IMG/VR virus record: IMGVR_UViG_3300009509_000001
Location: 1-64,000 of that record
Reading direction: 5' to 3' (one strand)
Length of the DNA stretch: 64,000 nt
Source: a virus
Position 1 is the stretch's first letter, and each line of letters opens with the position of its first letter. The notes beneath the pieces were generated by a model, which saw only the letters and a program-made list of their open reading frames with translations, searched no databases and was not told the origin of the DNA. Below are positions 9,109-64,000 of the stretch, piece by piece. The position numbers were made by a program, and so were the translations under genes.

Positions 9109-9124
9109 TGGTCAAACCTTTGTG

Positions 9125-46160: not shown

Positions 46161-46200
46161 AGAAAAAGACTCCCGGACCCGCGGTCCGGGTACGGGAGCC
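46161..46200 (-). terminator. Intrinsic terminator after major capsid gene
   Basis: Minus strand CCCGGACC-GCG-GGTCCGGG-AGTC-TTTTTCTT. Confidence 0.75.
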
Positions 46201-47768: not shown

Positions 47769-48167
47769 TTAGCTAAGAGTTGTATTCCAGCTTTGTTCCC
47801 ATGCTTCGTCCGAAGCTGCCTTATTCTGCCCACCGGCGGCATCAGCCGCCTGTTTGGCGAGCGGAGCGGGCGTGCCAAGCGGACGAGGTGCGGAGTCGCT
47901 TTCGCGCTTCCCAAACTCGTCTGCGAGACGCTGCAGACTCAGCAATGCTTGATCCGGATTTTCCGGATACGACTGCACCAGCGTTTCAGCGGCCTCCTTT
48001 GACAGGAGATTACGAGCAACCAGCTTTTTGGCCGTTTGCTTGAGGACATCCTCACTGAAAGCGGGCTTTGCACTGGCCACTGCGGCCTTCTTGCGAAGGT
48101 CTGCGATGACTTCCTGCGACACTTCAACGTAGTCCACTACGTTTTCGAGCAGTTCCCGCGTGTTCAT
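47769..48167 (-). CDS. Small helical head-assembly (scaffold-like) protein (132 aa)
   Basis: Between scaffold and decoration; three KxA motifs. Confidence 0.55.
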   Translation of the reverse strand: MNTRELLENVVDYVEVSQEVIADLRKKAAVASAKPAFSEDVLKQTAKKLVARNLLSKEAAETLVQSYPENPDQALLSLQRLADEFGKRESDSAPRPLGTPAPLAKQAADAAGGQNKAASDEAWEQSWNTTLS

Positions 48168-48179
48168 GATGATGTCTCC

Positions 48180-49226
48180 TTACTTCGCTTGGATTGACTT
48201 CAGGGCTTCCAGAAGGGCGCCCTTACGGTCGGATGCGGTTTTCTCCAGAGGCGGCTCCTCGACGGGAACTTCCTCTTCGGCCATGGGCTCTTCACCCATA
48301 GCGGCTTCTTCCTGAAGCATCGCTACGATCTCTTCATCAGAAGCACCGGTTTCTGCCTTGATTTCCTCAACGGCGGCTTGCGCCTCCATGAGTTCCTCAG
48401 GCGTCACACCGGCAGCATCCAGTTGTGCTGCCAAGTCATCCAGGGCAGCCGTATCGTCTGGAGACAACTCGGCTTCCGGTTGGGCCTCCTCAGGAAGGAC
48501 AGCCTCCGGACTCTGGACGGCGGCGGCGTCGAGCAATGCGGCGGCTTCTTCCTCGGAAGGAGCCATGCCTGCGTCGACGACCTCGTTTATGTCCTCAGCT
48601 TTCTTCTGCAGGCCCCGTTGGAAACCGGCGTTGAAAGCCAGAAAACTTTCGAGAACTTCGGGATCGATGTCCTCTTCGGCCAATTTGCTGATGCCGGCTG
48701 CGGGCGCCTGGGACGCCTGCTTCTGGATCGGCTCGACCTGTTCAAACTTGTTGGTGGCGATGACTTGCAGAATCGTCGAAGCCAGCCGTTCCGCACGCGC
48801 AACCTTCGCGATCTCACTGGGAGCCGCGTGGGCGGTGGTAACGTCGGTGACGTTCACGTTGTCGCCTTCCATCTTGACGGACTCGTCCGCGTTGAGCTCT
48901 TTCGGGCTCTGCGGGTTGTCCTGCGGATGAGTGACTTCGTCCTCTTCCTTGACCTGGGCGCCGTCGTCGGTGGCCAGCTGAGCGTCACCCTTGGTGGCTC
49001 CCATTTCGCTGTCCTTGAGATCGGCTTCCATTTCCGCACCACGATCCTTTTCGGCAGCCAGCGTGTTGTCGGCGCTGACCTCTTTGATCTCGGTGCCCGT
49101 CTTCTTTGCCTTCAGCTCTTCAGCACCTTCCCCCTGGGGGTTGGTCTGGTCGGCGGCGGTCTTCTGCAGGTTGGCCTGGTCGAAGAAGTCGTCGACGAGT
49201 GAAGTGACCAAATCTTGTTGATTCAT
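48180..49226 (-). CDS. Acidic scaffolding/core protein (348 aa; start moved to ATG 49226)
   Basis: Very acidic, helical or disordered, follows the protease; six KxA motifs. The track's N-terminal 19 codons overlap the protease gene end. Confidence 0.65.
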   Translation of the reverse strand: MNQQDLVTSLVDDFFDQANLQKTAADQTNPQGEGAEELKAKKTGTEIKEVSADNTLAAEKDRGAEMEADLKDSEMGATKGDAQLATDDGAQVKEEDEVTHPQDNPQSPKELNADESVKMEGDNVNVTDVTTAHAAPSEIAKVARAERLASTILQVIATNKFEQVEPIQKQASQAPAAGISKLAEEDIDPEVLESFLAFNAGFQRGLQKKAEDINEVVDAGMAPSEEEAAALLDAAAVQSPEAVLPEEAQPEAELSPDDTAALDDLAAQLDAAGVTPEELMEAQAAVEEIKAETGASDEEIVAMLQEEAAMGEEPMAEEEVPVEEPPLEKTASDRKGALLEALKSIQAK

Positions 49227-49267
49227 TGTCACGGGTCCTTTTTGGTTTCCGTTTGGATTGCACCTAC

Positions 49268-50710
49268 CTATACTGTAGCACAAAGTTGGACTACAGACAA
49301 ACGCTGCTCGGTGTCGGTGAGACCATCAGCGAAGCTAAGCACGTAATTGGCGTACTCGCGCGCCAGGAGAACGGACGAGTCCGATGCCTCCGACGCCTTC
49401 TTCTGTATGACGACCTTACCGCCCACAGGGGCTCCATTCAGAACGGCCCTGATGACCCGAACCCGTACAGGTTCTTGTTCAATCGAACACTCGGGCTGCA
49501 TGGCCTTCGCGTCCGCCATCAGTGACCCGTCACAGGAACCGGCGGGCTCGTAGCTGCCGTCGTTCAGAACGTCGGAGAGACTGTCGGACTCCAGCAGATT
49601 GCCCAGGATTCCCGGGACGGCCTGCTTTACGTCGGCCATTTCGCCTTCGACGTCGCCGAACTTGTCACCCATGACCAGCTTTAGGAAAAGCTCCACCGGC
49701 AGGATGACCTTGCAGCGTTTGAGCGCGCCCATTACGGCGTGCGGGTCTTCGGCCGACATGCGGCCGATTGCATTGTCGTCGACGCATCCGAAGCCGGATT
49801 CCGGGGCAAACGCCTCGGTACCCATATCCGGGTCGTTCGACAGCAAAACTTCTTTTTCGATCTTGGCCAGCTTCTGGAGCAGGTTGTACCTGCGAGCCAG
49901 GTTACTACCGGCCGGGAAAGCGTTTACGGGCGGAGCCATGCCGTACATTTCGGCCAGGTGGGCTCCGGTGAGAACTCCGGCGGCGGCGACTTTTCGCAGC
50001 CCGAAGCAGATCTTCTCGGCGGGGCGTTCGACGCCGCTGATGTCATGGAAGAACGGGCGCGGCGTAAGCGCGCACACCTGCGTTCCGTCGCTGGCCAGCT
50101 GCATCGCGTACTTGTTGAGGTGGTCGCAATAGTCTTCGATCTTGCGGGCCTCGTTATGGCAGTAGCTGCAGATGTCCTCAGGGCAGTCGCTGCCCATGCT
50201 GAAAAAGATGGCTTCGTCATTGGCGACCTTCTGGAGCTCTTTGCGCCATTGCCGTTCATCGACGCCGATGATGAGCTCACCGCGATCCATCGGCAGGTTG
50301 TACGCCGCTTTGACGATATAGCCGCTGGGTTTTCCGTCTTCATGCTTGTTGATGTGCTGCTTGTAGACGGCGCCGTTGGCCATGAAAGTCTTGTCGTGGT
50401 AGTCGACCAGGCCGCCCTTGAGATGGATGGTGCGGCGTTCCGGGTCCTTCGGGTCCGGGCACGTATGGCTCGCGCTCTTGCGGATGAAGGCGTCACCGTT
50501 GTTGTTCGGCCCGTAGCGATCCCATGCGCCGACACTGATAAGATGGATGTACTGGTGCCCCGGCCGGCGCTCGAATTCCATGTCCTTGTCGAACAGTGCG
50601 GCACGCTTGTGCAGCCAGCCGTTGTCGATCCCGCGGCTGTGCAGCGGTACCAGGCTTGCCGTCGGCATGCCGAAGTCGAACGAATCCGGGAATATCAGCT
50701 TCCTGATCAC
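49268..50710 (-). CDS. Prohead maturation serine protease with Cys/His zinc-binding segment (480 aa)
   Basis: GPNNNGDAF, YKQHIN, FSMG (catalytic Ser candidate) followed by CPEDICSYCHN...YCDH, then FHDISGVERPAEK. Confidence 0.75.
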   Translation of the reverse strand: MIRKLIFPDSFDFGMPTASLVPLHSRGIDNGWLHKRAALFDKDMEFERRPGHQYIHLISVGAWDRYGPNNNGDAFIRKSASHTCPDPKDPERRTIHLKGGLVDYHDKTFMANGAVYKQHINKHEDGKPSGYIVKAAYNLPMDRGELIIGVDERQWRKELQKVANDEAIFFSMGSDCPEDICSYCHNEARKIEDYCDHLNKYAMQLASDGTQVCALTPRPFFHDISGVERPAEKICFGLRKVAAAGVLTGAHLAEMYGMAPPVNAFPAGSNLARRYNLLQKLAKIEKEVLLSNDPDMGTEAFAPESGFGCVDDNAIGRMSAEDPHAVMGALKRCKVILPVELFLKLVMGDKFGDVEGEMADVKQAVPGILGNLLESDSLSDVLNDGSYEPAGSCDGSLMADAKAMQPECSIEQEPVRVRVIRAVLNGAPVGGKVVIQKKASEASDSSVLLAREYANYVLSFADGLTDTEQRLSVVQLCATV

Positions 50711-52386
50711 TTGGTGCCTCCGCTTACCATGTAATCGAGGAGATTCTTGTACTCCTCGTCGGTCATGTTTCCGCCTTCACGCAGCTTCTTGATGGCCGTG
50801 ATGGCCTTGCGGCCGACCTTCTTGGTTTTGCTGCGCGCGGCCTTGACGTCCTTCTCGGACTGGGTACGACGCTCGGCGCCCTTTTCCTTGAGATCCATTT
50901 CGCGTTCCTTGACGGAGAGTTCGCGCTCTTTGAGAGCGTCGGACTTGGCGTCGCGGCGCGGGGCCTTCTTTTCACCGCCGCCGGCTTTCGCCGGAGCGCC
51001 CTTAGCCCCTGCGGACCCGTCGAGAATGTCGCCGACGCGCCCGGCATCGAGACCGGCCTTGTACTTGGCGGCCCGGTCCTCAAGCTGCTTGGCAGCCAGA
51101 TCGACGTCGGTTATCCGCCCCTTGGCGATCTCCTTGCCGATGGCCTGGAGTTCCTTGATGGTGGCCGGATCGGAAACGTTGCCCTGGACGAGCTGCTGGC
51201 GTACCAGCGACTTCAGCCACGAGCTGTATTTCGGATCCAACAGGTCGGGCATTGCGCCGACGACGTTGTTGTATGCCTCCATCGTTTCGTCGATGGGATA
51301 ATCTTTGGTAAAATCGTCGGCCGCGACGTCCACGAACGCCTGCGTGGCCCGGATCTGGTTGAGGCGGTTGCGCAGAGTGGCGTCAAACGCCTCCTCTTCG
51401 CCGACCTTCTTTTCCTTGGTCAGCTGCTCGTACATCGGGGTCTTGGCGAAGTTGATGACCGGGTCGAGAAGACGCTGGGCGCTTCCCTTGACCGCCGCCC
51501 CGACTCCGCGTGCGGCACCGCCGACGTTGCCCAGGGACGTCATTCCCCGAACACCTTCGCCTGCCTCTTCCTGAAACTGCTCTGCTACGCCCAGCTCGGG
51601 AAGCGTCAGCGCCACTTTCTTGAGCAGACGGTTGAAATGGTTGTATGACCGGGCCTCGTCGATTGCGATGCTTACGCTGGTATAGGGTTCCTCCAGCGGG
51701 AAGATCGCGGCGGCCGCAGTCTTGTGGAGTTTGAATTCCGTGGACGTGTGCGCTCCGACCAGCTTCATCAGCCGGACGCCGTCGTCGCCGTAACGGTTGA
51801 CGGCTAAGCGTGCGACCTTCATCATCGGCTTGCTGGGCATGCGCCGGATGACGCTGCAGATACGATGGATGGCGTCCTCGCTTGCCTGCTTGTGCATCGA
51901 GATCTTTTCGCGGAATTTGTCGATGCTGCGGCTCAGGTTGTCGGTCGCGGTCATGATTTGTCGGTCCAGGCAACGGACGTCGACCGGCTTCGGCTCGGCA
52001 CCCAGATCGAAGGCGACCTTGCTCAGGCCGTGCACCCTCAACGTGTTCTCCTGGAGAGCCGGTATCGGCAGGTCGAGTGCGGCGGAAGCCGCCTTCTTGT
52101 GGTATCCGTAGATAATGTTGATGACGATGTTGGGATCGATGAGCGGAATGTCTTCGGCGCGGTCTTCACTCGCGCGCTTCTGGAGCGTATGAATGCTCTT
52201 CGACTTGTTGTAGGCTTCGCATGCGCGCCGGACGAGTTCCGGGGTCATGCCGTCGAACTGCGTGAAAGTTTCCGCTGCCACTTTGTTCAGGTCGGCGTCA
52301 GGCGTGAATCTCGTTTTGTCGATTATCTGCTCGATGGCCGACATGACCGACTGTTCAAGGGCTTTGTCAAGTTTCTTGAAACTCAT
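50707..52386 (-). CDS. Internal head protein candidate (559 aa, eight KxA motifs)
   Basis: ORF track; motif density; basic low-complexity C-terminus. Confidence 0.55.
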   Translation of the reverse strand: MSFKKLDKALEQSVMSAIEQIIDKTRFTPDADLNKVAAETFTQFDGMTPELVRRACEAYNKSKSIHTLQKRASEDRAEDIPLIDPNIVINIIYGYHKKAASAALDLPIPALQENTLRVHGLSKVAFDLGAEPKPVDVRCLDRQIMTATDNLSRSIDKFREKISMHKQASEDAIHRICSVIRRMPSKPMMKVARLAVNRYGDDGVRLMKLVGAHTSTEFKLHKTAAAAIFPLEEPYTSVSIAIDEARSYNHFNRLLKKVALTLPELGVAEQFQEEAGEGVRGMTSLGNVGGAARGVGAAVKGSAQRLLDPVINFAKTPMYEQLTKEKKVGEEEAFDATLRNRLNQIRATQAFVDVAADDFTKDYPIDETMEAYNNVVGAMPDLLDPKYSSWLKSLVRQQLVQGNVSDPATIKELQAIGKEIAKGRITDVDLAAKQLEDRAAKYKAGLDAGRVGDILDGSAGAKGAPAKAGGGEKKAPRRDAKSDALKERELSVKEREMDLKEKGAERRTQSEKDVKAARSKTKKVGRKAITAIKKLREGGNMTDEEYKNLLDYMVSGGTK

Positions 52387-52389: not shown

Positions 52390-53220
52390 TTATACCTCAT
52401 CTTGAAATTTGTTAATAGCTATCATTTCATCTTCAAGCGTCATCGACTCGTCCGGACGTCGTATCGCGGACTCCAACGCGTCGAAAACTTCCGCCAGCAT
52501 GGCCCGATCATCATGAGTGTTGTCGTCATCGGGCCTTGTGGACTCCTTGTGCCACAGAGCCGTAAGGCTCGCTGCGGGAGTACCAGCACTATCTATTAAC
52601 TTAGCACCGGTATGGATAGATTTCAAAACTTCCTTGACGTGCGTGCTTATGCCGAGCCCCTGCATCCACTGGGCGAGCTCCGGCTCCAGGTGTTTTCCGT
52701 CTATCGCATACTTCGAAAATTTGTCTATTCCGCCGCCATAGGCGACGACCTTCCACATGTACGCCGTGTCGAACTTGTCCTTTCGAGTGATGCTCCTGTT
52801 CGGCACGAAAATGTTCTTGTGCACCCAGAACGGTTTGTCTCTGTCGGCCGCCACGTCGAAGAACAGGTGCTGGTACAGCTTTACCAGCCGAGGCGTAAGG
52901 AACCTGGACACGTACGCCTGGAAAAACTCGATGTCGGCGTCTTCGGCCAGCAGCCCGGCCTCCATGATGTCCCGGAACCCGCTGACGCTGTTGTCCCGGT
53001 AGATCTCCAGCGCGAGCACGAGCCCACGTATATGCCCGTTGTTGCGGAGCATGTCCTTATCCAGCGACTGGTTGTAGTACCGTACGATCAGCTCCTTCAA
53101 CCGCTTGACGCCGTCATCCGGGCACTGGCCGTAGACCGGGAGATTCGCTTTCTCCCGCTCCACTTCGCGCATGGCGATCTGAAACCGCCAGTCGGGTCTG
53201 TCTGTGAATGGACTATCCAA
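52390..53220 (-). CDS. Hypothetical helical protein (276 aa)
   Basis: Tiles with neighbours; no recognised motif. Confidence 0.6.
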   Translation of the reverse strand: MDSPFTDRPDWRFQIAMREVEREKANLPVYGQCPDDGVKRLKELIVRYYNQSLDKDMLRNNGHIRGLVLALEIYRDNSVSGFRDIMEAGLLAEDADIEFFQAYVSRFLTPRLVKLYQHLFFDVAADRDKPFWVHKNIFVPNRSITRKDKFDTAYMWKVVAYGGGIDKFSKYAIDGKHLEPELAQWMQGLGISTHVKEVLKSIHTGAKLIDSAGTPAASLTALWHKESTRPDDDNTHDDRAMLAEVFDALESAIRRPDESMTLEDEMIAINKFQDEV

Positions 53221-55408
53221 AGTTTTCCGTCAGCTCGTCTGCGAATAGGTTGGCGTCGCTTCCACTGGTCGACTTGTGCAGGAACAGCGTCAGGTCGCTG
53301 AGATTCTGGAAGTTGTCGCGGAGACTGTCTTCCAGCTCGCTCATCTTTTCCTGACCGTACTGATCCTTGAACTGGTTGTAGTGCCAGTAGAACATGAAGA
53401 GGATGCGGCCGATGCGGTCAAGCGCCAGCAGCAGATCCTGCATATAGTCCTCGACCATCCGGCTTGGGCTGCCGTTGGCGGCCAGCGCCTTCAGGACGCT
53501 GACGTCCATGACGTCCTTGACGCCTTTCTCACTGGCCTTGACGACCTTGTCGACATCGCCCTCGGCCATGGCCGGGTCGAGCGTCTCATTCTCTTCGAAC
53601 GGGGTCACGTCTTCATAGTAGACGCTCTTGACCTTTTCGTCGTCTTCACCGATCTGCGGAGCAGCGTACTTGACCAGGTAGTCGGTGCGGTCGGGCCGTC
53701 CGACGCTGGCCTGTTTGCTCAGCATCTGGCGGGCATCCGGGGCACTGATCTTGTGCTGTTTGATCAGCTTGAGCAGCGCCGCGTTCTTGGTGAGCATGCG
53801 CTCCTTGCCGAACTTGCTGTCCAGCGAGAAGCTCAGCCCATCGGTCTGAATGGTAAGGCCACGCCATCCGGCGGTCTTTATGATCTTGTGCTTGATGGTC
53901 TCGATGTCGCCGAACGCCATATCCATGTCGCAACATCCGCGCAGCGCCACGATCCGTGCGCCTTCGGGGATGTACAGGTGCGTTCCCTTGCGGCATACTT
54001 CACCAGGCTTACCGGTCAACTCGATGATGCCCTTCGTGTCCACCCAGTCATGGGTGTCGGTGTCGCATGGAAGCTTCACCTGGGCGATCTTGTTGCCGAT
54101 GATGGAGGAATCGTTGCCCGTGCGGAATTCCTGGTAATTGCCCTTGCTGTCGATGGCGATGCAGTTCTGCCATTCCCATCTCTTCAGCGTGTCGTCGCTT
54201 TCCGGCGATTCTTCCGCCGGGCCGTCGCTCTCGGCGTCGTCGAACTTGCGGAGCAGGTTCGTCGGCTTGATGCCGATGCCCATAAGGTCGGTCGCTTCCC
54301 GGGCCTCGAGTGTGCGGGCCAGCAAAGGCTGCTCGCACTTGACGGCCACGGAGGGCCGGTCGAGATCGATGACGACGCAGGTGAAAGCCTTGATGTCGAC
54401 GGTGTTGCCGCCGTCCGGGTGCTTCCAGCTACCCTTCTTCTGCGGCTGCACGATGACGTAGCATTTGCGGAAGCTGCCGTCGGCCAACAGGATCTCGTAG
54501 TACCCGTTCTTGACCGGCGTGCTGAGACTGCCGCTGTCCTGCTTGTCGGTGAACACCGTGGACGTGTACTCGCGGTTGTCGACCACGTACAGGCCGTCGC
54601 GAAGCACCACTTCCTTAGCCTTGTCGTCCAGCTTCTGGACGGCTTCGGCGTCATCGATGCTGACGACCTGGAGATCGCTCTGATCGACCGTGTCCTCGAC
54701 CTTCAGCGAGTAACTGCCGTCCTGCACTTCGGTACCGTCGGCGGCAGGGGTCTGATCCTGCACGGCGGCCGCGATCTTGCGAATCGACTCGGGCTCGTAG
54801 TGGGCCAGCACGGCATTCGCGAAATCCGGATTGCCGTTCATGGTGCGCATGAAACTGACGAACGCGTGCTTCCCGAGGCGTGGAATCCACGTGCGCAAGT
54901 CGAATGCATTGTAATCGTAACGATCGTAAACGGTGAGCATGTCTTCGACGTCCACGTCGCGCAGCAGCGAATTGTCACTGGCGCCCTTGAACATGATGCT
55001 GTTGCTCTTGCCGTCGCGGCGGAGGCTGACGCCGTCGGCACGTTTCGGGTTGCTCTTCGGCATGTCGCCGGCGGGTTCGCCGAGCACGGTGGCCCGGTTC
55101 GACTTGATGTAGCTTACCCAGCTGTCCTTGGCCGGTACGAACTGGCTCTTCTCCGGCAGATACATCATATCGTATCCACGGATGCGTCCGTTCAGGAGGA
55201 AGCACGGCACATAGATCCACTGGTCGCCGATCTTGTAGACCATGACGCCCATTCCGCGGGTGCCTTCGTCATCGCGTTCGATCAGCTGGAAACCGACCTT
55301 GTATTCACTGAGAGACGGGAGCCGCTGTGTGATCTCCGCCTCGGCTACGTTCGACAACTTGATTTCGAAGTCATCTGCCGATGCATTCTTTCTGAGTACG
55401 TTTATCAT
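53213..55408 (-). CDS. Large internal head protein candidate (731 aa, five KxA motifs)
   Basis: ORF track; motif occurrences LRKNAS, IRKIAA, IIKTAG, LSKQAS, LVKYAA. Confidence 0.55.
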   Translation of the reverse strand: MINVLRKNASADDFEIKLSNVAEAEITQRLPSLSEYKVGFQLIERDDEGTRGMGVMVYKIGDQWIYVPCFLLNGRIRGYDMMYLPEKSQFVPAKDSWVSYIKSNRATVLGEPAGDMPKSNPKRADGVSLRRDGKSNSIMFKGASDNSLLRDVDVEDMLTVYDRYDYNAFDLRTWIPRLGKHAFVSFMRTMNGNPDFANAVLAHYEPESIRKIAAAVQDQTPAADGTEVQDGSYSLKVEDTVDQSDLQVVSIDDAEAVQKLDDKAKEVVLRDGLYVVDNREYTSTVFTDKQDSGSLSTPVKNGYYEILLADGSFRKCYVIVQPQKKGSWKHPDGGNTVDIKAFTCVVIDLDRPSVAVKCEQPLLARTLEAREATDLMGIGIKPTNLLRKFDDAESDGPAEESPESDDTLKRWEWQNCIAIDSKGNYQEFRTGNDSSIIGNKIAQVKLPCDTDTHDWVDTKGIIELTGKPGEVCRKGTHLYIPEGARIVALRGCCDMDMAFGDIETIKHKIIKTAGWRGLTIQTDGLSFSLDSKFGKERMLTKNAALLKLIKQHKISAPDARQMLSKQASVGRPDRTDYLVKYAAPQIGEDDEKVKSVYYEDVTPFEENETLDPAMAEGDVDKVVKASEKGVKDVMDVSVLKALAANGSPSRMVEDYMQDLLLALDRIGRILFMFYWHYNQFKDQYGQEKMSELEDSLRDNFQNLSDLTLFLHKSTSGSDANLFADELTENFG

Positions 55409-55409
55409 G

Positions 55410-57233
55410 TCAGACCTCGTTTATGTTTACTAGCCTCGGGAAATAGGAAATGCTGTCCTTCTCGCTGACAGCTCCTCTGGTGGCGGCTCTGGTCACCGTT
55501 CGTTTAAGATTTTCACCCGCCAACTGCGTCATGAGATCGGGGTCCGTGCTCATGAAGTCCTGCGCACGGATGATCTCCGGTTCGAAAGGTGGCGGGCTCG
55601 CATGCGTCATAACCTGTTTTACACCGGCTGCCTGAAGCTTTCTGATCACGCGCGGCGTTATGCGCGTTCCAATGGTGTAATGCAGGTATGGCTGTTCTAA
55701 GTATAACTTATTCGCCGTAGTGACCGTTTTCAACCCAGCCCCCTCACGCGGCGTCCAATCGGCGGCCAACGTGTTGTAGTTTATCACGTCGTCCGGAAGG
55801 TGGCCGTTGATTCCCTCCGGGTCGGTGATGCGCACCTTGTTGACGAATTCACGGGCAAGGTACTCGAGATTCCGACGGTCGGTTCCGCTGTTCGAATTCT
55901 TCAGCAGGCTGCGAAGATGATTCAGGAAGTATACCCGGCCTTCGCCGATTCCCTTGTGCTTCACGAGCTCGGCGGCGTTGAGCATGCCGTTGGTCATCAT
56001 GTCGCCGGCCTCCACCGTGTCACCCTGTTTTACCGTGATGTCGTAGCCTTCGGGCACATAGTGCTTCTCACTGCCGACCCACAGAAACGTCCCGCCCTGG
56101 GCGGCCTTGGCGACTCTGGCGACCTTTCCGTCCACCTGGGACAGTACTGCGGCGCCAGGAAATTCCTTGGGCACCTGAAAAAACTTGTTGACGGCCTTGA
56201 AGCCGCTCTCCTGCTTCTGCGTGCTGCCGATCTCCCCGCCGGCATGCTTCGAGCTGATGGCGCTCTGGGTAAGCGGCTCGATGAAACTTCTGGCGCCCGT
56301 AATCCCCACGGTGTCGCCGATGTCCGGCAACGTCCCGGTTTCGCGCACTCCCGCGCACTTGGCGCAGATGCCCTCTTTGGCTTTGCAGTTCAGGGCGCTT
56401 CGGCCCACGATCTTCTTATCCTTGATCAGCGCGGAGTTCTCGTCGTCGATGATCGTCCCTGCCGGAAGACCCGCGATCGGCTTGGCCAGCACGGTTCCGA
56501 TGTTGTCCGGATCGTCGCCGTCCAGCTCGAGGCCCTCGGTCGTTCCGCAATCCTCCGTGGTCACCACGTCGCGATGACTCACGTTGGTGAGTTGCTTTCC
56601 GAAGTAACCGCTGTCGGCCGTCGCGAACTGCACGTCCACGTAACCTTTGCGCCCGCCGTGACTGGCGGCCCAGTAGGACAGTGGGCTCACGCCCTCGGCG
56701 TAGCCCTCTAAGTTTGGATAAGGCACGGGCCTTCCCTTGGAGTCGGCGCTTATGAGGTTGCCGAGCAGCAGCTGACGCAGCTGAAAGGCTTTACCGCGGC
56801 TCCCGCTGTTGATCTGGAGTGCGAACGCGCCATTGCGGTCGCTGACCGCCTTCAACAGGTCGTCGTCGATCGTGGCGCTGAAGTCCTGGACCATTTTGAG
56901 GACGGCCTGCTCCTTCTGCTCTGGGCTCAGCAGCGGGCTGTCATACGTCTGGTCGACCTTTTCCTTCAAGGCGTCGCGCCGTTGTTTGATCTCCGGCGGG
57001 ATCTTGAAGTCTTCAAGGCTAAGCGAGGCTTCGCGACCGTACAGCGACGCCACGTTGATGCCGATCGTGTTCAGCTTCTGGAGCGACTCGACATACTTGT
57101 CGGGGTCTTCCTGGGCCATGCGGGTGAACAGCTTGCCGACGGCACGCTTGTCCAACGCTCCCTGGAAGTCCTTGTAGCCTTCCGGTAGTGCTTCCCTGAC
57201 CTTTTCACGGCCCAATGTGGTTACTGCGCTCAT
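55410..57233 (-). CDS. rpoC: Phage multi-subunit RNA polymerase, beta' C-terminal half (607 aa)
   Basis: TTLGR start; INSGSRG; bridge helix HGGRKGYVDVQFATADSGYFGKQL; Zn site EDCGT...NCKAKEGICAKC; trigger loop EPLTQSAISSKHAGG. Confidence 0.93.
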   Translation of the reverse strand: MSAVTTLGREKVREALPEGYKDFQGALDKRAVGKLFTRMAQEDPDKYVESLQKLNTIGINVASLYGREASLSLEDFKIPPEIKQRRDALKEKVDQTYDSPLLSPEQKEQAVLKMVQDFSATIDDDLLKAVSDRNGAFALQINSGSRGKAFQLRQLLLGNLISADSKGRPVPYPNLEGYAEGVSPLSYWAASHGGRKGYVDVQFATADSGYFGKQLTNVSHRDVVTTEDCGTTEGLELDGDDPDNIGTVLAKPIAGLPAGTIIDDENSALIKDKKIVGRSALNCKAKEGICAKCAGVRETGTLPDIGDTVGITGARSFIEPLTQSAISSKHAGGEIGSTQKQESGFKAVNKFFQVPKEFPGAAVLSQVDGKVARVAKAAQGGTFLWVGSEKHYVPEGYDITVKQGDTVEAGDMMTNGMLNAAELVKHKGIGEGRVYFLNHLRSLLKNSNSGTDRRNLEYLAREFVNKVRITDPEGINGHLPDDVINYNTLAADWTPREGAGLKTVTTANKLYLEQPYLHYTIGTRITPRVIRKLQAAGVKQVMTHASPPPFEPEIIRAQDFMSTDPDLMTQLAGENLKRTVTRAATRGAVSEKDSISYFPRLVNINEV

Positions 57234-57237
57234 TTAT

Positions 57238-57942
57238 CTACTTCAGGGGTTCGGGCACGCCACCTGCCGCCCATGATTTCGCGGATTCATGAAGACCAGC
57301 CGCAGCACCGCCGTAAAGCAACGTTCGAAGAGCCGTTGCGAGGGCGCCTTTGCCGGCGGTTTTCAACTTTGCACGCGTCGGGATGCCCGGCGCACTCTTT
57401 ATCTTTCCTGGGCTGACGTTCATCCCCTTCGGAGCATTTACTCCGATAGACATCTTCTTGGGCTTTCCAGCCTGGGCAGCCTCGAACTTGGCGAGTTCGC
57501 CTGCCTCGAGCTTGTTAAGATCGTACAAAGACTTCAAACCGCTCCCAATGCCAAAGACGGGTGCAGCGACTCCGGTGACCTTGGCTACGTTCCCGGTTGC
57601 GGCATCCGCAGCCGTCTCGAGAATCCCGCGATTGGCGAGTTTCTTCTTTTCGGCGAGAAGCTTGTCGTAATCTTCGTATTCCTTTTCCTTCTTCTTGCCC
57701 TGGGCCGACAGGTACGAGCCGACCCCGGCCCCGGCAGTGGCACCGAGGCCAGCGCCGAGTATGCCGGCACCCGCGCCCTTCAGTCCGAGCCCGTAACGCG
57801 TAAGCAGGTAGCCCATTCCGCCGCCGCCGAGAGTGGTCAATGCCAGAAGCATCGCACGTTGCTTGGATGCATCCTTGCTCGACGGCTTGGCGTCCTTCTT
57901 GTCTTCGTCGCCCGCTGTTTTGTAAAGTAGGTACTGTCGCAC
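57238..57942 (-). CDS. Glycine-zipper membrane-active protein, ejection-protein candidate (234 aa; GTG start 57942)
   Basis: SD AGGAGG 7 nt upstream; LLALTTLGGGGMGYLL...GAGAGILGAGLGATAGAGVG; N-terminal LYKTAG. Confidence 0.6.
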   Translation of the reverse strand: MRQYLLYKTAGDEDKKDAKPSSKDASKQRAMLLALTTLGGGGMGYLLTRYGLGLKGAGAGILGAGLGATAGAGVGSYLSAQGKKKEKEYEDYDKLLAEKKKLANRGILETAADAATGNVAKVTGVAAPVFGIGSGLKSLYDLNKLEAGELAKFEAAQAGKPKKMSIGVNAPKGMNVSPGKIKSAPGIPTRAKLKTAGKGALATALRTLLYGGAAAGLHESAKSWAAGGVPEPLK

Positions 57943-57953
57943 TGTCGGCCTCC

Positions 57954-58685
57954 TTATCGAGCCAGCTTGGTTTTGCTCCAATCGATGACGCTGGCCGTTT
58001 TCGGCAAGGTTTCACCTGGAGGGAGCCCGGCATCCATCTCTGAAAATCCAGGAGCTCCTGAAAGTTGGTCTGCAGCGAGGGCCGCTGCCGCATTGTCGAT
58101 TTCGGACGGTTCGGCCTGCGCCGGCGTCGGTTCGGTATCGCCGCCCATGCCGACGTCACCGGCCGGAAGCTGCACGCCCATGGCTGCAGCCAATGCCGAC
58201 AAGCGATCGTCCACGGCCTGCATTTTGGCCATGATGTCCTTGTTCGTGGCGCGGCCGGATTCTTCTTTCTCCTTGCCGCCGCTCACTTCCTGCAAAATCT
58301 GCTGAAGGTCTTCGAGATTGAGCTGAACGGGGGTTCCCGCCGCCGCTTCCATCTCTTCCATTCCGGGCTCCGGGGGCATTCCGCCGCCCATTGCCATTGC
58401 AGCCATCGGATCACCGCCCATAGCTGCCATCGGATCACCGCCCATTGCGACCGGGTCCATCGGCATTCCGCCGCCGCCCATTGCGGCCATCGGATCACCG
58501 CCCATAGCTGCCATCGGATCACCGCCAGGAGGCATGCCACCCATTGCGGCCATCGGGTCCATCGGCGGGGCACCACCACCCATGGCAGCAGCCTGAGCTT
58601 CTTGCGTTACGGGGTTGAAGGCGTTCTTTTTCAGCCCGTTTCTGGCCTCGGCTGCCTGTTTCTTCAATAGGTTAAGGTCAATCAT
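57954..58685 (-). CDS. Met/Gly/Pro-rich low-complexity internal protein (243 aa; ATG 58685)
   Basis: SD AGGAGG; MIDLNLLKKQAA...; GGDPMAAM repeats; LPKTAS near the C-terminus. Confidence 0.7.
   Translation of the reverse strand: MIDLNLLKKQAAEARNGLKKNAFNPVTQEAQAAAMGGGAPPMDPMAAMGGMPPGGDPMAAMGGDPMAAMGGGGMPMDPVAMGGDPMAAMGGDPMAAMAMGGGMPPEPGMEEMEAAAGTPVQLNLEDLQQILQEVSGGKEKEESGRATNKDIMAKMQAVDDRLSALAAAMGVQLPAGDVGMGGDTEPTPAQAEPSEIDNAAAALAADQLSGAPGFSEMDAGLPPGETLPKTASVIDWSKTKLAR
58371..58585 (-). repeat. Coding repeats GGDPMAAM
   Basis: gccatcggatcaccgcccat at 58402, 58426, 58486 and partial at 58510. Confidence 0.85.
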
Positions 58686-58704
58686 GATTCCTCCTGAGTT
58701 TCTA

Positions 58705-58714
58705 TTTAATATAG
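58705..58714 (-). promoter_or_regulatory. Candidate late-promoter element CTATATTAAA
   Basis: In the intergenic gap after the RNAP stop, 20 nt upstream of ATG 58685; identical to 28086-28095. Confidence 0.4.
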
Positions 58715-58716
58715 TC

Positions 58717-61700
58717 TTATGCCTTGCTTTTTTCCAATATGACGATCGGCGTGTCGATGTCGATCTCCCCGGCGTTGAACGCTTCCTGCGCTTCGCGCAT
58801 GGTTCTGAACGTACGCTTGGCCTGGCCCTTGCCCGGCCGCGTGGCCAGATACAGCCCCTGTACGAACTGCTGGCGCGGTACGTAGTGGGCCGTGAAGTCA
58901 CGCGGACTCAGGAGGTTAGCTTCGGGCGTCATCTTGGCCCTGGCCTCCTCGACCGCCTCTTTGCTGACGGGAGCGTAATAGGTCACGCTGTCTCCGTCGA
59001 AATCCATACCGTAAGGTTCGACGATGCTGGGGCTCACCTGCACCGACTTGCCTTTGACGAGCACCGGTTCGAACGCCATGACTCCGTACTTGTGCAGCGT
59101 CGGTGCCCGGTTCACGATGACCGGGCGTTCCTTGACCGCTTCGTACAGGAAGCTCTCGGCCTTCTGATCGCGATCCTTCACGCGCTTGATGGCGTCGGTC
59201 GGCGCATAACCGCTCTTCACCATGTTGCGGACGACGAACGGCTCGAAGACGTCCCAGGCATCCTTGATCGGAATGCCGATCTTGTTAAGGGGCATGGACG
59301 GGTTCGGCGTCACGACGCCGCTTCCGGCCAGGTTCATGGCCGTACCGAGCACGCGGCGGTGATAGCCACCGTACTTGGCGCTCCCCTTTCCGAGTGCCCA
59401 CTTGAGCAGGCCCTGGACGTTCTTTTCCTGGAGCTTGGCGTCGTCGGGATCATACATCCCGGTGAGTGCCTTGTAGGTGTTGTACATCTGTTTGCGGGCG
59501 CCCTTTATACTGCTGTCGGGCAGTCGCTCGCGAGCCGAACGCATGTCGTCGCGGGCGAACACCAGGCTGCGGTACAGCATATTGGCATCGGCCGTGATGT
59601 TCGTGCCGTCGAGCTGCGTAACCGGGCGGAACTTCGGCGGGAGCACCGGGACACGCTCCATCATGAAGTCTTTCGGGTGAACGTCCTGTTCCTCCATGCT
59701 CTTCAGGAACCGGTAACGCTTGAGCGCCTTGTCCTTCTTGCTGGGCGTACTTCCCTTCAGATCCTCCATGGCGCCCTTGACCGCGGCCTTCATGTCGATC
59801 TTGGCCAGCGCCGCCTGTATGGCGGCTCCGCCGGTCTTGTCGCCGATGGCCTCTTCGCCGCTCATGACGGCGTTGAATTTCTTCTGCGTCATTCCGAGTA
59901 CGCTGGCGAGCGCAGGCTCCATGACCGGGTTCGGTAGTGGCTCGTCGAGCTGAATGTAACCCCAGCCGGTGCCGTCGTCTCCGAAAATCTTCGGATCGAA
60001 CAGGCCCCCGTCGATCGGCTTCATGGTCTTCTGGTCGAAGGTGCGGGCGACCCCGAGCTCATGGCCTTTGGCCAGATCCTTGGCCTGGCGGTCAGTCATT
60101 CCGAAAAAGTTGATGCGGTCGGGCTGCTCATCGACGTTGATGCCGGCTCCCTTCAGATGCTCGTAGAACTTCTTGTTGACGATGGGGGTGCTCGGCATCT
60201 TGGGCACGCGGCCCATGCGGAAGTCACGCCAGAACTCGTCGTTGGCCTGGCCGCGGATGAGCTTCGCGTCCTTGAGTACCTTCATGGCTCCGTGGCTCAC
60301 CAGCGCCGACGTGTGAAGTCCCCCGATGAACTTGGAACCATGCTTGCCGCCTCTGAGCGGCGTGTCCTCACCGGAGGACGGGCCGACTCCACGGCCTTTG
60401 CCTTTGTCCTCGGCCATATGCATCAGTCTGTAGTAGAAGGCTTCGCCTGTGAGGACTTCGGGTATCTTGCGGCCGGTCACGGGGTCATATAGATCTTCGT
60501 TGGCGCTCAGGCCGGCCTGCTTCAGTTTTTCCTCGTACTTATCAATCATCTTTTCGTCGAATCCTTCGACGATTTCGGGCTTCCCGGTCTTCCTGGCCAG
60601 CTTTCCGGCAAGCGCTTCGGTGACCTGCATCGGATTGACGCGGCTGATTATGCCGAGCGGGCTCAGCAGCACATCGTATGGGTTGCCGTCCTTGTCCAGC
60701 GGCATCTCGTTGTCGGGAAGAATGTTCACCACGCCCTTGGCTGCATATCGGCTGCTCATTTTGTCGCCGTTGCGCATGGGCACGTTGGCCCTGGTGTAAA
60801 CCGTGGCGTGCTTGTCGCCTTTGTCGGCTTCCACGACCTTGCCTTCGTAATCGTGATCCCAGGTTTCGACCACGGCCGTGCGGGTCTTGCGTCCCAGGCT
60901 GCCGGGCTTGGCCTCGTTGTGCCTGACGGCCACGATCATCGGGTCGCCCTTGCGCAACACGGTGCCGGGCTTCACGATCCCCTGGTCGGTAAGCGTGTCC
61001 ATCTGGTCCTTGGTGAATCGGCCGGAGAACTTGCCGATAAATTCCTTCTTGTCAAAAGCGGTGTTGGTGGAGACGGGTACGCGCTGCTTGTACATCTTCT
61101 CGGCGGCGAGCTTCTTGGCTGCCGATTCGGAGATCGTGATCGCGTCTTCGTATGCGTGACCCTTCCAGTTCATGTAGGCTACGCGCAGATTGCGGCCCTG
61201 GGCTGCGACGCCCTTGTCGTCCGTGTAGTTGGTCGTGGCCAGAACCTGGTTGGGTTTGACCTCGTCGCCGACCTTAACCTGCGGAATGCTGCGCAGGTAC
61301 CCCTTCTGGTTGAACGGGTGATTGTTGTACAGATCGTATGTCTCGGTGCCTTCGGGTCCGCGGATGGTGATGCTGTCGGCGTCCATGGCTGCAACAGTCC
61401 CCTTGATCGTGGACTTCCGCACACCCATCATCTGCCCGATGTCCTCTTCGGCCGTGCTGGTGCCCTGGCGACTGCGTACGAGTGGAGCTTCACGCTGCGC
61501 AAGCGGCATCGCCTGGACGCCGTACTTGCCACCCATCTGCAGGCGGTTGGACATGATCCCGCTCTTCCCGGGGACGCTGTTGGAGCCCTTGCTGAACATG
61601 TTGGAGTCGTCCATGATGTAGTAGTCCACGTCCTGCTTGGGGACGATCTTCACGCCCTTGCTTCCGTGGATGGCCGGAACGAACTTTCCCTTGGCATCGA

Positions 61701-63075
61701 ACTCCTTCTTGGTCGCCACGCGGCTGCGGGCGGCCGTCAGACTGTCGACCCATTCTTCCTTGCCGGTCTTGGCATTGAACATTTTGGTGTAAAGCCGGCC
61801 ATCGTCGCCCTTTCGGACACCGTTGGCCAGGTACAGATCCAAACCGACGCGTAGAGATTCCACGCTGCGGACGGGGTCGACGAAGCCGGCAAAGCTGTCC
61901 TGTACCGCCCGAGTCTCGCTGGGAGCCGTGCGTACACCGCTGATCCCACCTTCGCCAATGCGGCTGATCTTCGTGCTCAGGTCGATGGCTGAAAAGGGAC
62001 TGCTCCCATCGATATAACTCGCATGACGTGACTCGTTGAATATTGCATCGACGTGTTTATTCATGGGAGCAGTCGGTATATCATCGAAATTACCGCGACG
62101 CGATATGCGCCACAGCAGATTCCGCGCTATGCCCCCACCGTCACGCACGATGCGCTCGGCGAAATAATCGGCGGGTCCGTCCACCTTCTGAAATTCAAGG
62201 CTGTCTCGATAATCCTCCCCGGCTTCTCCCCGGCTAAGCTTCAGGACCTTGCCGGCCGATTCCAGAAGAGTCTCGGGCGTGAGCCTCGGGTGTGGGCGTC
62301 CAAGCGTAATCTCGGTGGATACCGGGTCCAGCTCTGTACGCTGGAGCTTCTCGATGAGCTCGTCGTATTGGGCGGACTTGTCCTGCGCCGTTTTCGGTAT
62401 TCCACCCGTAAACCGCTGCGTCGGCTGCTGGATGTCGCTGGCACGTCGGTTGACGTCCAGGAGCTCGGCGCCCCACTGTTGTTTGATCTGATCGTCGGTC
62501 ATCCCCTGCCGTTTCAGGATCGTGTAAAGTTTGTAACCCCTTGTTCCCTGCTTGAGCCGGAATATGCCGGTCTTCGGGTCGAGCTCGATCTTGAACTGGC
62601 CGCCGGTACCCTGCTTCGGGTTTACGTGGGCCTCGAAAAAGCCGTTCTCCTTCTTGCGCGTGTATACGCCCGGCGTCAGTCTGAACATGTAGTTGATCGA
62701 CTGTTCGCTGCCGTTGCGGATGAAGGTTCCCCGTTCCGTCATCCACGGCACGTTCATGAGCACGCGCGGATTGCTCGTGGTGGTTTCCCCGGTCTCCTTG
62801 TTCGTTAGCTTCCAGCGACCGCGCAGCTTGGCGGTCACGCTGCCGTTCTGAAGCACGGCCTGCTTCTCGTCCCGGAGCCTGGGTTTGTATTCGTCGTAAT
62901 CGACACCGTCGACATCGAGCACGAAGCGTTCGTTCTCCAGCGGGAAACGCTGTCTGAACGCGCTTTTCGTGTTGTCGAGGATCCGTTGGCGCACCTGGGC
63001 GTAGTCCGTCGGGCTGTATGGCTTCGACTTTGCACCGACAACCGGATCCAGTAGACGGGTCTGGAAGTCCTGCAT
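58717..63075 (-). CDS. rpoBC: Phage multi-subunit RNA polymerase: complete beta (~982 aa) fused to beta' N-terminal half (~470 aa), 1452 aa
   Basis: Beta motifs PWMTERGTFIRNG, HAYEDAI, GDKMSSRYAAKG, ISRVNP, RLMHMAEDK. Junction near 60130 (AGINVD/EQPDRI). Beta' motifs PVLPPKFRP, NRAPTLH, catalytic YGMDFDGD (58990-59013). Confidence 0.95.
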   Translation of the reverse strand: MQDFQTRLLDPVVGAKSKPYSPTDYAQVRQRILDNTKSAFRQRFPLENERFVLDVDGVDYDEYKPRLRDEKQAVLQNGSVTAKLRGRWKLTNKETGETTTSNPRVLMNVPWMTERGTFIRNGSEQSINYMFRLTPGVYTRKKENGFFEAHVNPKQGTGGQFKIELDPKTGIFRLKQGTRGYKLYTILKRQGMTDDQIKQQWGAELLDVNRRASDIQQPTQRFTGGIPKTAQDKSAQYDELIEKLQRTELDPVSTEITLGRPHPRLTPETLLESAGKVLKLSRGEAGEDYRDSLEFQKVDGPADYFAERIVRDGGGIARNLLWRISRRGNFDDIPTAPMNKHVDAIFNESRHASYIDGSSPFSAIDLSTKISRIGEGGISGVRTAPSETRAVQDSFAGFVDPVRSVESLRVGLDLYLANGVRKGDDGRLYTKMFNAKTGKEEWVDSLTAARSRVATKKEFDAKGKFVPAIHGSKGVKIVPKQDVDYYIMDDSNMFSKGSNSVPGKSGIMSNRLQMGGKYGVQAMPLAQREAPLVRSRQGTSTAEEDIGQMMGVRKSTIKGTVAAMDADSITIRGPEGTETYDLYNNHPFNQKGYLRSIPQVKVGDEVKPNQVLATTNYTDDKGVAAQGRNLRVAYMNWKGHAYEDAITISESAAKKLAAEKMYKQRVPVSTNTAFDKKEFIGKFSGRFTKDQMDTLTDQGIVKPGTVLRKGDPMIVAVRHNEAKPGSLGRKTRTAVVETWDHDYEGKVVEADKGDKHATVYTRANVPMRNGDKMSSRYAAKGVVNILPDNEMPLDKDGNPYDVLLSPLGIISRVNPMQVTEALAGKLARKTGKPEIVEGFDEKMIDKYEEKLKQAGLSANEDLYDPVTGRKIPEVLTGEAFYYRLMHMAEDKGKGRGVGPSSGEDTPLRGGKHGSKFIGGLHTSALVSHGAMKVLKDAKLIRGQANDEFWRDFRMGRVPKMPSTPIVNKKFYEHLKGAGINVDEQPDRINFFGMTDRQAKDLAKGHELGVARTFDQKTMKPIDGGLFDPKIFGDDGTGWGYIQLDEPLPNPVMEPALASVLGMTQKKFNAVMSGEEAIGDKTGGAAIQAALAKIDMKAAVKGAMEDLKGSTPSKKDKALKRYRFLKSMEEQDVHPKDFMMERVPVLPPKFRPVTQLDGTNITADANMLYRSLVFARDDMRSARERLPDSSIKGARKQMYNTYKALTGMYDPDDAKLQEKNVQGLLKWALGKGSAKYGGYHRRVLGTAMNLAGSGVVTPNPSMPLNKIGIPIKDAWDVFEPFVVRNMVKSGYAPTDAIKRVKDRDQKAESFLYEAVKERPVIVNRAPTLHKYGVMAFEPVLVKGKSVQVSPSIVEPYGMDFDGDSVTYYAPVSKEAVEEARAKMTPEANLLSPRDFTAHYVPRQQFVQGLYLATRPGKGQAKRTFRTMREAQEAFNAGEIDIDTPIVILEKSKA

Positions 63076-63076
63076 A

Positions 63077-64000
63077 CTACACCACCGCTACGTTGCGAGC
63101 CAACGTGTCCGTCGGGTCGATGATCTGGTCCTCGAGAGCTCCGGCACTCGCACCCTGGTCGATGAGATTGACGCTGCGTGGCCGGACCTTCTTTTTCTTG
63201 TTTATATGCGCGTCGAGCTTGGCCTTTATGCGCGGGTCGATAGCGCCGATGAGTACCGGCGGACGCTCCTGCAAGGCCATGCGCTCGGCCGCCTTTTCAG
63301 CCGCCTTTATGCGCTGCCGGTTGGGATCGCGCTCGTCGGCCCACTGCTTGGTAAGCACGGCGCCGCCGGCGAAAGCCGTCACGCCCAGCAACGCCAATGC
63401 GGCCTGGAGCGATCCCATGGTAGATGACTGTCCCGGGTCCTTGATGCCGAGGATGAGGCGCTGGGCAAACGTCGGGCGCTGGCGATCTTCGGCTTCCTTC
63501 TCGATCAGGTCCCGGGTGATCCCGGCGGCCTGCTCGGCCCGTTCCTTACCGTAGTCGCGGAGCGACGGGTCCGGGCTGATGACCGGCATTCCGGCCTGTA
63601 CGGACGCTTCGAGCCTGCGGTTGCCCTTCTGGGCCTCCTGCTTGCGCTCGAGCGCGCTGAGAAGATACTTGATCCCGAAGGCGCCGCCGCCGTAGAGCCC
63701 TGCCATGAGCATGGCTTTCGTCAGCATCTTCTGATCGAAGGTCGCATCTTTTCCGGCGGCCCGCATGAAGCCTGGCACCGGAGTGTCTTCGACGCCGAAC
63801 GGAAGAGCGGCCGCCTTCACGTAATCGCCAATTCCGGCCGTTTTGCGAACTGTACTCATAAGCTCGAGATTGACCTTGCCGAGCTTGTTCATATTCTCTT
63901 CAATGCGTTTCTGCCGCTCACGCTTCGCACGTATATCGGCGAGCTTGTTGGCCAGGGTAAAGCCACCGTAGCTGCTGATTGCCATGGCCGCGATCGGAAG
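63077..64000 (-). CDS. Membrane-active internal protein candidate, 5'-truncated (>=307 aa)
   Basis: Frame stays open upstream of ATG 63985 to the window edge (LPIAAMAISS...); hydrophobic segments AMLMAGLYGGGAFGIKYLL and AALALLGVTAFAGGAVL; VRKTAG, YVKAAA, IEKEAE motifs. Confidence 0.6.
   Translation of the reverse strand, partial: LPIAAMAISSYGGFTLANKLADIRAKRERQKRIEENMNKLGKVNLELMSTVRKTAGIGDYVKAAALPFGVEDTPVPGFMRAAGKDATFDQKMLTKAMLMAGLYGGGAFGIKYLLSALERKQEAQKGNRRLEASVQAGMPVISPDPSLRDYGKERAEQAAGITRDLIEKEAEDRQRPTFAQRLILGIKDPGQSSTMGSLQAALALLGVTAFAGGAVLTKQWADERDPNRQRIKAAEKAAERMALQERPPVLIGAIDPRIKAKLDAHINKKKKVRPRSVNLIDQGASAGALEDQIIDPTDTLARNVAVV

Follow-up and report, generated by a model that had tools for sequence, protein, structure and literature searches.

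The present analysis concerns a candidate virion-packaged RNA polymerase (RNAP) of bacterial type, encoded by two genes in the head operon of the IMG/VR virus record IMGVR_UViG_3300009509_000001. The window, that is, the whole stretch of 64,000 nucleotides under study, is the first 64 kb of this 194,576-bp record, which carries a 144-bp terminal repeat and is rated complete. A codon-usage-based gene call over the whole genome placed 235 of 243 genes on the minus strand, so that the RNAP and head region is part of one very long transcription direction; the few genes of opposite strand are grouped at 181972-188161, about the large terminase gene. In the window, 46.2-64 kb of the minus strand is occupied by a tightly packed head operon, which runs from the portal gene, located beyond the window at 68.4-70.2 kb, to the capsid gene. 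Over the 22 kb from below the portal to the capsid (68208 to 46244), all gene junctions fall between -11 and +50 nt, with gaps of 1 nt before the large RNAP chain (beta-beta'N), 4 nt before the small chain (beta'C) and 1 nt before the following gene of 731 amino acids (aa). The nearest isolates are Salmonella phage Arash (OQ632216) and then Vibrio phages D69, D148 and D181. The features of the region are given below in descending coordinates, with L009 to L012 denoting metagenomic relatives.

63077-64057 (window end 64000), minus strand: 326-aa protein with N-terminal IKKQA and two hydrophobic segments; homologues only in L009 and L012; its stop codon lies 1 nt ahead of the beta-beta'N start
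58717-63075, minus strand: RNAP large chain, beta-beta'N, 1452 aa, from Pfam, PDB and NCBIfam matches and from E. coli and clade alignments
57954-58685, minus strand: 243-aa low-complexity protein rich in Ala, Gly, Met, Pro and Asp; conserved in L009 (3e-49) and L012 (7e-16); true start at M73 of the listed 315-aa open reading frame; LLKKQA and GLKKNA near the N-terminus, LPKTA near the C-terminus
57238-57942 (to 57981 for the longer form), minus strand: glycine-zipper protein, 234-247 aa, with LYKTA at residues 19-23; homologue only in L009
55410-57233, minus strand: RNAP small chain, beta'C, 607 aa, from Pfam Rpb1_5, PDB, TIGR02386 and the E. coli alignment
53213-55408, minus strand: 731-aa protein, starting 1 nt past the beta'C stop; homologue of Arash gp218
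52390-53220, minus strand: 260-276-aa protein; homologues in L009 and L012 only
50707-52386, minus strand: 559-aa protein; tail rich in Lys and Ala; LHKTA and MHKQA at internal positions
49268-50710, minus strand: prohead protease, 480 aa, T4 gp21/assemblin fold; homologue of Arash gp222
48180-49283 (348-aa form 48180-49226), minus strand: acidic scaffold-like protein, 348-367 aa, with three [LI]xK[TQ]A motifs and, in 48180-49226, 81 acidic against 29 basic residues; the scaffold label reflects position and composition only
47769-48167, minus strand: 132-aa head-module protein with LRKKA at residues 24-28
47227-47745, minus strand: 163-172-aa head protein directly upstream of the capsid gene; conserved in L009-L012
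46244-47212, minus strand: major capsid protein, 322 aa; phrog_2522; homologue of Arash gp226 (4e-23)
46172-46190, minus strand: GC-rich hairpin with a T-run just downstream of the capsid gene; terminator/attenuator-like
15007-15771, minus strand: sigma-70-family factor, 254 aa, regions 2, 3 and 4, in the baseplate/tail operon; homologue of Arash gp10

All elements of the arrangement described in the earlier note were recovered on the minus strand, namely RNAP genes interleaved and closely packed with KxA-bearing, glycine-zipper or low-complexity proteins beside protease, scaffold-like and capsid genes.

The fused and split RNA polymerase

The two RNAP genes had been taken for beta and beta'. 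They do encode two bacterial-type chains, but the Pfam assignments redraw their identity, as a fusion of beta with the N-terminal part of beta' (beta-beta'N) and a separate C-terminal part (beta'C). The large chain matches Rpb2_6 at residues 556-901 (1.6e-49), this beta catalytic barrel domain scoring 169.4 bits against a curated cut-off of 23.4, and Rpb1_1 and Rpb1_2 at residues 1095-1380, and in NCBIfam it is matched best by PRK09603 and PRK14844, two families of fused beta/beta'. The small chain matches Rpb1_5 (4.4e-19). Alignments with E. coli and clade sequences indicated that beta' is joined to the end of beta without a linker, and that beta' is split at TIGR02386 positions 536/549, beta'C covering model positions 549-1067. 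The cyanobacterial rpoC1/rpoC2 split is located some 60-70 residues further downstream. Beta-beta' fusions occur in Helicobacter and Wolbachia, and split beta' chains (gamma/beta'') in cyanobacteria and plastids, where gamma aligns with beta'N and RpoC2 with beta'C from about position 34, whereas here the fusion and the split are found together.

In sequence the enzyme stands near the bacterial RNAPs. The best solved relatives are bacterial beta/beta' chains from C. difficile, cyanobacteria, Thermus and E. coli (1e-51 to 1e-56), the large chain matching PDB bacterial chains at 1e-55 and the small chain bacterial beta' at 1.9e-51, and bacterial-like RNAP families of PHROG were matched at 1e-57 to 1e-61, against 1e-10 to 1e-18 for phiKZ-type families. 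The Mg-binding aspartate triad is kept, with GMDFDGD aligned to the NADFDGD of E. coli; DxDGD is present in the eight displayed clade members, and D1358, D1360, G1361 and D1362 are invariant in 17 of 17. The clamp helices, the bridge helix and the trigger-loop His are likewise retained in the alignment to E. coli, the bridge helix and trigger loop of beta'C being aligned to E. coli residues 721-956 and 1127-1284. Bacterial variants carry lineage insertions and a beta' zinc-binding domain, which the enzyme described here lacks: in comparison with E. coli, the insertions SI3 (in the trigger loop) and beta SI2 are absent and the beta flap region is shortened, and no Cys cluster of the zinc-binding domain was found between GGLFDPKIFG and WGYIQLDEP in any of 17 clade members. 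The rifampicin pocket is also altered (Q513S, H526L and R529K in E. coli numbering), and the H526 position is never His in the 17 clade members. Substitutions at H526 have a known effect on rifampicin action, and the enzyme is therefore probably insensitive to this drug, which would fit an RNAP built to work independently of the host enzyme.

The earlier note had called for a check on whether a second RNAP or an alpha subunit exists elsewhere in the genome; this was run on the complete genome and neither was found. A six-frame phmmer search detected no paralogue, and one match each was obtained for Pfam Rpb2_6 and Rpb1_2; the search for T7-like RNAP families was uninformative on this point, as it matched 0 control genomes. 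For alpha and omega, no match to RNA_pol_L, RNA_pol_A_bac or RNA_pol_Rpb6 was obtained in the complete genome, although 14 of 14 control genomes were matched, and the enzyme may use the host alpha. As far as these searches predict, beta-beta'N and beta'C are the only RNAP of the phage, and it is of bacterial type.

The same layout extends well beyond this genome. In Arash, too, beta and beta'N are fused (98% coverage, 30% identity) and beta'C is separate, and the order portal, beta-beta'N, beta'C, a gp218-like protein of about 600-700 aa, a gp222-like protease and capsid is shared. A HMMER scan with the beta'N part returned 7186 relatives; among the best 150 representatives at 50% identity, scores reached at least 295 bits, against about 177 for bacterial beta', and the beta'N match lay nearly always at the C-terminal end of proteins of 1340-3082 aa, which points to the same fusion and split in these relatives. 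The clade is thus large, with at least 150 clusters at 50% identity predicted to carry this fusion and split, and its contigs of 170-190 kb occur in many samples. Inteins (LAGLIDADG, Hint) were observed in beta-beta'N, beta'C and the prohead protease of many clade members, including L010-L012, the fused chain reaching up to 3082 aa.

Synteny around the RNAP genes is uneven. Four metagenomic relatives and Arash share the order beta-beta'N, then, after an interval, beta'C, a gene of about 700 aa, protease and capsid, and in the four the block from beta'C to the capsid is preserved, with a homologue of the 731-aa protein following beta'C. The interval between the two RNAP genes behaves as variable cargo across clade members, and in Arash it holds different genes, some of them on the other strand. 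Arash also has a second sigma (gp196) and, directly behind beta'C, a gene for a helicase (gp217), neither of which was found here, and it has many tRNA genes. The 731-aa protein itself gave no match in Pfam, PHROG or NCBIfam, and its ESM Atlas model, of low confidence with a pLDDT (predicted local distance difference test) of 0.38, returned meaningless fold matches.

The head-protein motif, the protease and the sigma factor

The motif [LIVM]xKxA occurs 112 times in the proteins of the genome, against 58.6 +/- 7.5 in shuffled proteins. Per 1000 aa, 6.06 motifs were counted for the head module, 6.47 for a second cluster (97-107.6 kb), 0.61 for the tail module and 0.97 for the rest, an enrichment of head-module proteins of about sixfold over the remaining genome. 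An N-terminal position, within residues 1-45, is found in 12 of 20 head-module proteins, compared with 7 of 164 elsewhere and none of the 33 tail proteins. The head proteins of Arash are likewise enriched (6.44 per 1000 aa, the tail proteins having 0.82), and in the capsid protein an [IVML]xKxA at residues 24-28 is positionally conserved in five clade members including Arash.

A protease that could read this motif is encoded in the same operon. The 480-aa protein, for which the ESM Atlas had given a lead, was modelled with AlphaFold 2 (AF2) at a pLDDT of 79.9, and a gp21/assemblin fold was recognized in residues 16-229, the C-terminal half being helical. The best VIA-align match of the protease domain was the T4 capsid assembly protease gp21 (5jbl_A; Z 9.4, root-mean-square deviation 3.4 A, 140 of 165 residues), followed by the herpesvirus assemblins of varicella-zoster virus (Z 7.5), human cytomegalovirus (5.5) and Kaposi's sarcoma-associated herpesvirus (4.7). 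Foldseek against the PDB returned nothing at E <= 0.001, gp21 being found only by the exhaustive aligner, and no Pfam or NCBIfam match was obtained. H105, H119, S171 and D179 are invariant in 41 homologues and are candidate catalytic residues. Since the motif and a gp21-fold protease are found in one operon, a maturation protease with [LIVM]xKxA specificity is the most economical reading; the motif is probably the cleavage code of this protease, from which we infer cleavage itself. Code and protease together provide a sequence-based predictor of head proteins in these phages.

A 941-aa protein encoded beyond the window (genome 104741-107566, minus strand), within the 97-107.6 kb cluster of head-like motif density, was noted separately. 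It matches 2_5_RNA_ligase2 (2H phosphoesterase, 2.4e-12), weakly Acb1, and InPase (4.5e-49), and carries five [LIVM]xK[TQ]A sites between its domains, so it could be a packaged polyprotein. Processing of the RNAP was considered at IPKTA, residues 226-230, the sole internal site of beta-beta'N, and was dropped as a feature of the clade, since 4 of 5 near relatives have the site but Arash and most of 16 wider members do not.

As anticipated, a sigma factor lies further along the same strand as the RNAP genes, a diverged sigma-70-family gene at 15007-15771. It overlaps its two neighbours by 4 and 8 nt and, by this arrangement, is translationally coupled within the baseplate/tail operon; the homologous sigma of Arash (gp10) is likewise located in a structural module. 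Single-sequence matches were co-linear and all under the curated cut-offs (TIGR02980, SigB/F/G, 1.7e-6; TIGR02937, sigma-70 superfamily, 1.5e-5; Pfam Sigma70_r3, 0.0024, and Sigma70_r4, 0.0074), and many homologues have precomputed Sigma70_r3 matches. A profile built from 29 homologues matched SigA, RpoD and SigF of the PDB at 1e-11 to 1e-8, with SigA at 1.1e-11 and sigma F at 2.1e-8 over positions 81-250. The AF2 model (pLDDT 80.8) gave Foldseek top matches that were all sigma factors (E 1e-6 to 1e-8, 240-254 columns). In relatives, sigma and this RNAP are found on the same 59-kb and 139-kb contigs.

Co-folding of sigma with beta'N (residues 985-1452) gave a weak score of 0.57 (runs 0.57, 0.16 and 0.63), against 0.00 for the best control, with a partner pLDDT of at least 64 and at least 18% of contacts common between runs. 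Of 80 solved complexes 58 attained the pass mark, as did 2 of 110 mismatched pairs, but scores of 0.60 or below comprised 7 of the 80 together with both mismatches. As sigma and beta' are a textbook pair, such a pass may reflect memory of, or likeness to, solved structures. A possible second sigma at 108581-108667, noticed from a weak Sigma70_r4 match, was rejected as an XRE-type helix-turn-helix repressor-like protein.

Probable packaging of the polymerase and the alternatives

The evidence that bears most closely on packaging comes from Arash. Liquid chromatography-mass spectrometry of purified Arash particles placed the fused chain, Gp206, at the top of all proteins (128 unique peptides, 3516 spectra) and also detected the beta'C Gp216 (40 peptides, 1210 spectra), the sigma Gp10 (24 and 467), Gp218 (36 and 1149) and Gp222 (16 and 365), the second sigma gp196 not being listed (PMC10585845). 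In the same list, the replication enzymes rest on 2 peptides each (PMC10585845). Expressed roughly as spectra per residue, Gp206 reaches 2.3, Gp216 2.0, Gp10 2.0 and Gp218 1.9, against 1.5 for the portal. The helicase gp217 (OQ632216, 141261-142679), encoded between gp216 and gp218, was also observed to be as virion-abundant as the RNAP chains (38 peptides, 1148 spectra). Two explanations were offered by the authors of that study, a function in early transcription and, alternatively, carry-over of enzymes expressed at a high level (2023, PMC10585845). The statement in the earlier note that this combination had not been characterised experimentally must therefore be withdrawn, as the Arash proteome was published in 2023 with an early-transcription role suggested by its authors (PMC10585845). 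It gives the central idea of that note a published, indirect precedent; RNAP injection is already hinted at in print, and hence the idea is not new. A 2026 jumbo-phage review mentions neither Arash nor mReC.

The presence of both RNAP chains and of sigma in Arash particles suggests that the enzyme is probably injected with the DNA. On balance, it appears probable that in the phage described here the RNAP is packaged and injected with the genome, using the phage sigma for host-independent transcription. The polymerase would be made late with the head proteins and enclosed in the capsid together with the sigma-70-family factor from the tail/baseplate operon; both would be delivered with the DNA, and the holoenzyme would start phage transcription without the host RNAP. 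Newly made copies of the same enzyme may then serve the rest of the cycle, as there is no second polymerase set. Packaging is made plausible by the late-operon position, conserved over great evolutionary distance, by the single RNAP set and by the Arash proteome. As to the bacterial-type, sigma-using, two-chain RNAP proposed beforehand, the bacterial type and the two chains stood, and a sigma-70-family gene is present whose product is probably used by the enzyme. A more specific model can be put forward tentatively, in which each particle would carry several copies of a self-sufficient holoenzyme, with beta-beta'N, beta'C, sigma and perhaps the neighbour of about 700 aa in roughly equal amounts, and one enzyme would transcribe the genome from injection to lysis.

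Several points weigh against packaging. The argument leans on a relative with an RNAP identity of only about 30%, and the Arash list comprises 116 proteins, including ribonucleotide reductase, ligase and primase (PMC10585845), which implies that the preparation carried non-structural proteins. Beta-beta'N, beta'C and sigma lack the N-terminal [LIVM]xKxA leader that marks head proteins, and the internal IPKTA of beta-beta'N is found only in close relatives. Some ten intergenic regions, including one ahead of the head operon (71418-71552), contain canonical TTGAC[AT]-N17-TAnnnT promoters, which the host sigma-70 RNAP could in principle read. Moreover, k-mer searches did not find a phage-specific early promoter motif.

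Some of these points favour an alternative reading. The RNAP would then be no functional component of the virion, the host RNAP acting early and the phage RNAP, with or without sigma, in the middle and late periods, while the RNAP genes would stand among the head genes for historical reasons and the Arash chains would reach the particles by carry-over. This is considered rather unlikely, although the promoters, the missing N-terminal motif of RNAP and sigma, and the clearly non-structural enzymes among the 116 Arash proteins, for which carry-over was raised by the authors themselves (PMC10585845), all speak for it. A late head operon, where the RNAP genes lack a promoter to themselves and are set 1-4 nt from their neighbours, is not where an enzyme needed before the late period would be expected; the gene position is conserved in very distant relatives; and while ligase, primase and the helicases have 2 unique peptides in the Arash list, the RNAP chains and sigma have 24-128.

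A membrane channel for entry of RNAP and DNA, formed by the glycine-zipper and low-complexity proteins among the RNAP genes, is quite improbable. Hydrophobic or glycine-zipper segments do occur in the products of 63077-64057 and 57238-57942 and in two more proteins between the portal and RNAP genes, and the N-terminal [LI]xKxA leaders suggest that the interleaved proteins are processed head proteins. However, no fold or family evidence was obtained for such a function, the inter-RNAP interval is occupied by opposite-strand genes in Arash and by homing-endonuclease and LigD-like genes in another relative, and Arash is described as contractile-tailed (PMC10585845), so that a separate channel is not obviously required. 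The claim that the phage packages its own membrane-channel proteins drew on composition only; as conservation of the interleaved proteins, including the glycine-zipper proteins of the inter-RNAP interval, does not extend past close relatives within the clade, that role finds no support.

T4 gp55 and SPO1 gp28 are phage sigmas that redirect the host RNAP. It is very improbable that the RNAP is packaged and the sigma-like protein is not its partner but redirects the host RNAP or, alternatively, acts only late on new phage RNAP for the structural genes. In favour of this reading, the phage sigma factors characterised so far act on host RNAP (Iyer et al. 2021, PMC7824862), the sigma gene belongs to the tail operon, some 40 kb away from the RNAP genes, and the shortened beta flap and missing zinc-binding domain imply that sigma contacts may differ from those in bacteria. 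Against it, the clamp helices, the main sigma docking site, are retained, sigma and RNAP share the contigs of relatives mentioned above, and Arash Gp10 is a well-supported virion protein whereas the second sigma gp196 is not in the list.

Known systems and regulatory sequences

A functional parallel to the packaging reading is provided by phiKZ/AR9-type phages (Chimalliviridae and PBS2-like jumbo phages), which likewise have multisubunit RNAPs of the beta/beta' lineage; theirs are made late, packaged in the head and injected, giving early transcription that is host-independent and rifampicin-resistant, and their heads contain many protease-processed internal proteins. These enzymes consist of 4-5 chains, are far more diverged and are accompanied by a second, non-virion set, whereas here one set of two chains lies near bacterial RNAP. 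Thus, the phiKZ-like arrangement of virion and non-virion RNAPs (vRNAP and nvRNAP), two paralogous and multiply split sets, was not encountered, the complete genome yielding one two-chain set and no paralogue. Phages of the phiKZ/AR9 type have no sigma-70-family gene (PMC7824862, PMC13282480), while one is present here. The description of phiKZ-like enzymes as sigma-independent in the earlier note is too simple, since the nvRNAP subunit gp68 is structurally sigma-like (PMC13282480). The N4 vRNAP and the crAss-like gp66 are also phage RNAPs packaged and injected for early transcription, but these are giant single chains (T7-like in N4, two-barrel in the crAss-like phages) without sigma, unrelated or barely related in sequence to the enzyme described here.

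Cellular-type beta and beta' have also been reported from metagenomic tailed phages, the mReC phages (Weinheimer & Aylward 2020, PMC7481178). In the sections of that paper available, beta (about 1000-1560 aa) and beta' (about 900-1390 aa) are separate, sometimes in two sets, with no layout of 1452 plus 607 aa, and the capsids match T4 Gp23 (PF07068); neither sigma nor packaging is discussed there (PMC7481178). For the capsid protein of the present genome, Pfam gave nothing at E <= 0.01. By gene layout and capsid, the phage thus falls outside the mReC lineage as characterised by separate beta and beta' genes and a PF07068 capsid, and the sample identifiers of its relatives are absent from the mReC supplements.

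According to a comparative survey, the jumbo groups that encode a multisubunit RNAP lack sigma, and genomes that encode sigma factors lack RNAP (PMC7824862); unlike in that statement, the clade described here has its own multisubunit RNAP together with a sigma. If the self-sufficient holoenzyme is real, it would represent the first virion RNAP to depend on a sigma-70-family factor, and a large and widespread clade would possess a third way, beside the N4/crAss and phiKZ types, of transcribing phage genes independently of the host. If packaged, two chains and a sigma would also offer a simple model for the assembly of a bacterial-type RNAP, its threading through the tail and its promoter recognition. 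Cultured members exist (Arash and Vibrio phages D69, D148 and D181), which makes the question directly testable.

Regulatory sequences were also surveyed. Over 44.5-64 kb, a scan for consensus promoters and terminators did not rise above shuffles (8 against 4.9 +/- 2.5 and 24 against 22.2 +/- 4.9, respectively). The k-mer candidates for early promoters were rejected, being only the translation-initiation contexts AACTGGAGAAC-N5-8-ATG and TTAACACAAAGGAG together with generic sigma-70-like hexamers. The first of these contexts, AACTGGAGAAC followed after 5-8 nt by ATG on the minus strand, was recorded at about 17 sites in genome 109-181 kb (for instance 109356, 114927, 116015, 133616 and 175259), and is confined to the non-structural part of the genome, being absent from the head and tail operons. 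A leader, ATTAACACAAAGGAG, stands just ahead of start codons at window positions 9118 and 32792 and at genome positions 79529, 81119, 88868 and 192150, often preceded by a -10-like TATA(C/A)T, and an inverted copy lies at about 46206, between the capsid gene and the next gene, beside the hairpin at 46172-46190. Three promoter-like sites in genome 89664-89910 and 96840-97202 have the form CTTGAC(A/T)-N5-6-CGGCAA-N-TA...T, in which CGGCAA represents a conserved spacer element atop canonical -35/-10 hexamers. Finally, two adjacent genes of the window, 37049-39871 and 39882-41999, encode large paralogous virion proteins of 940 and 705 aa, both matching phrog_10356 and phrog_11772.

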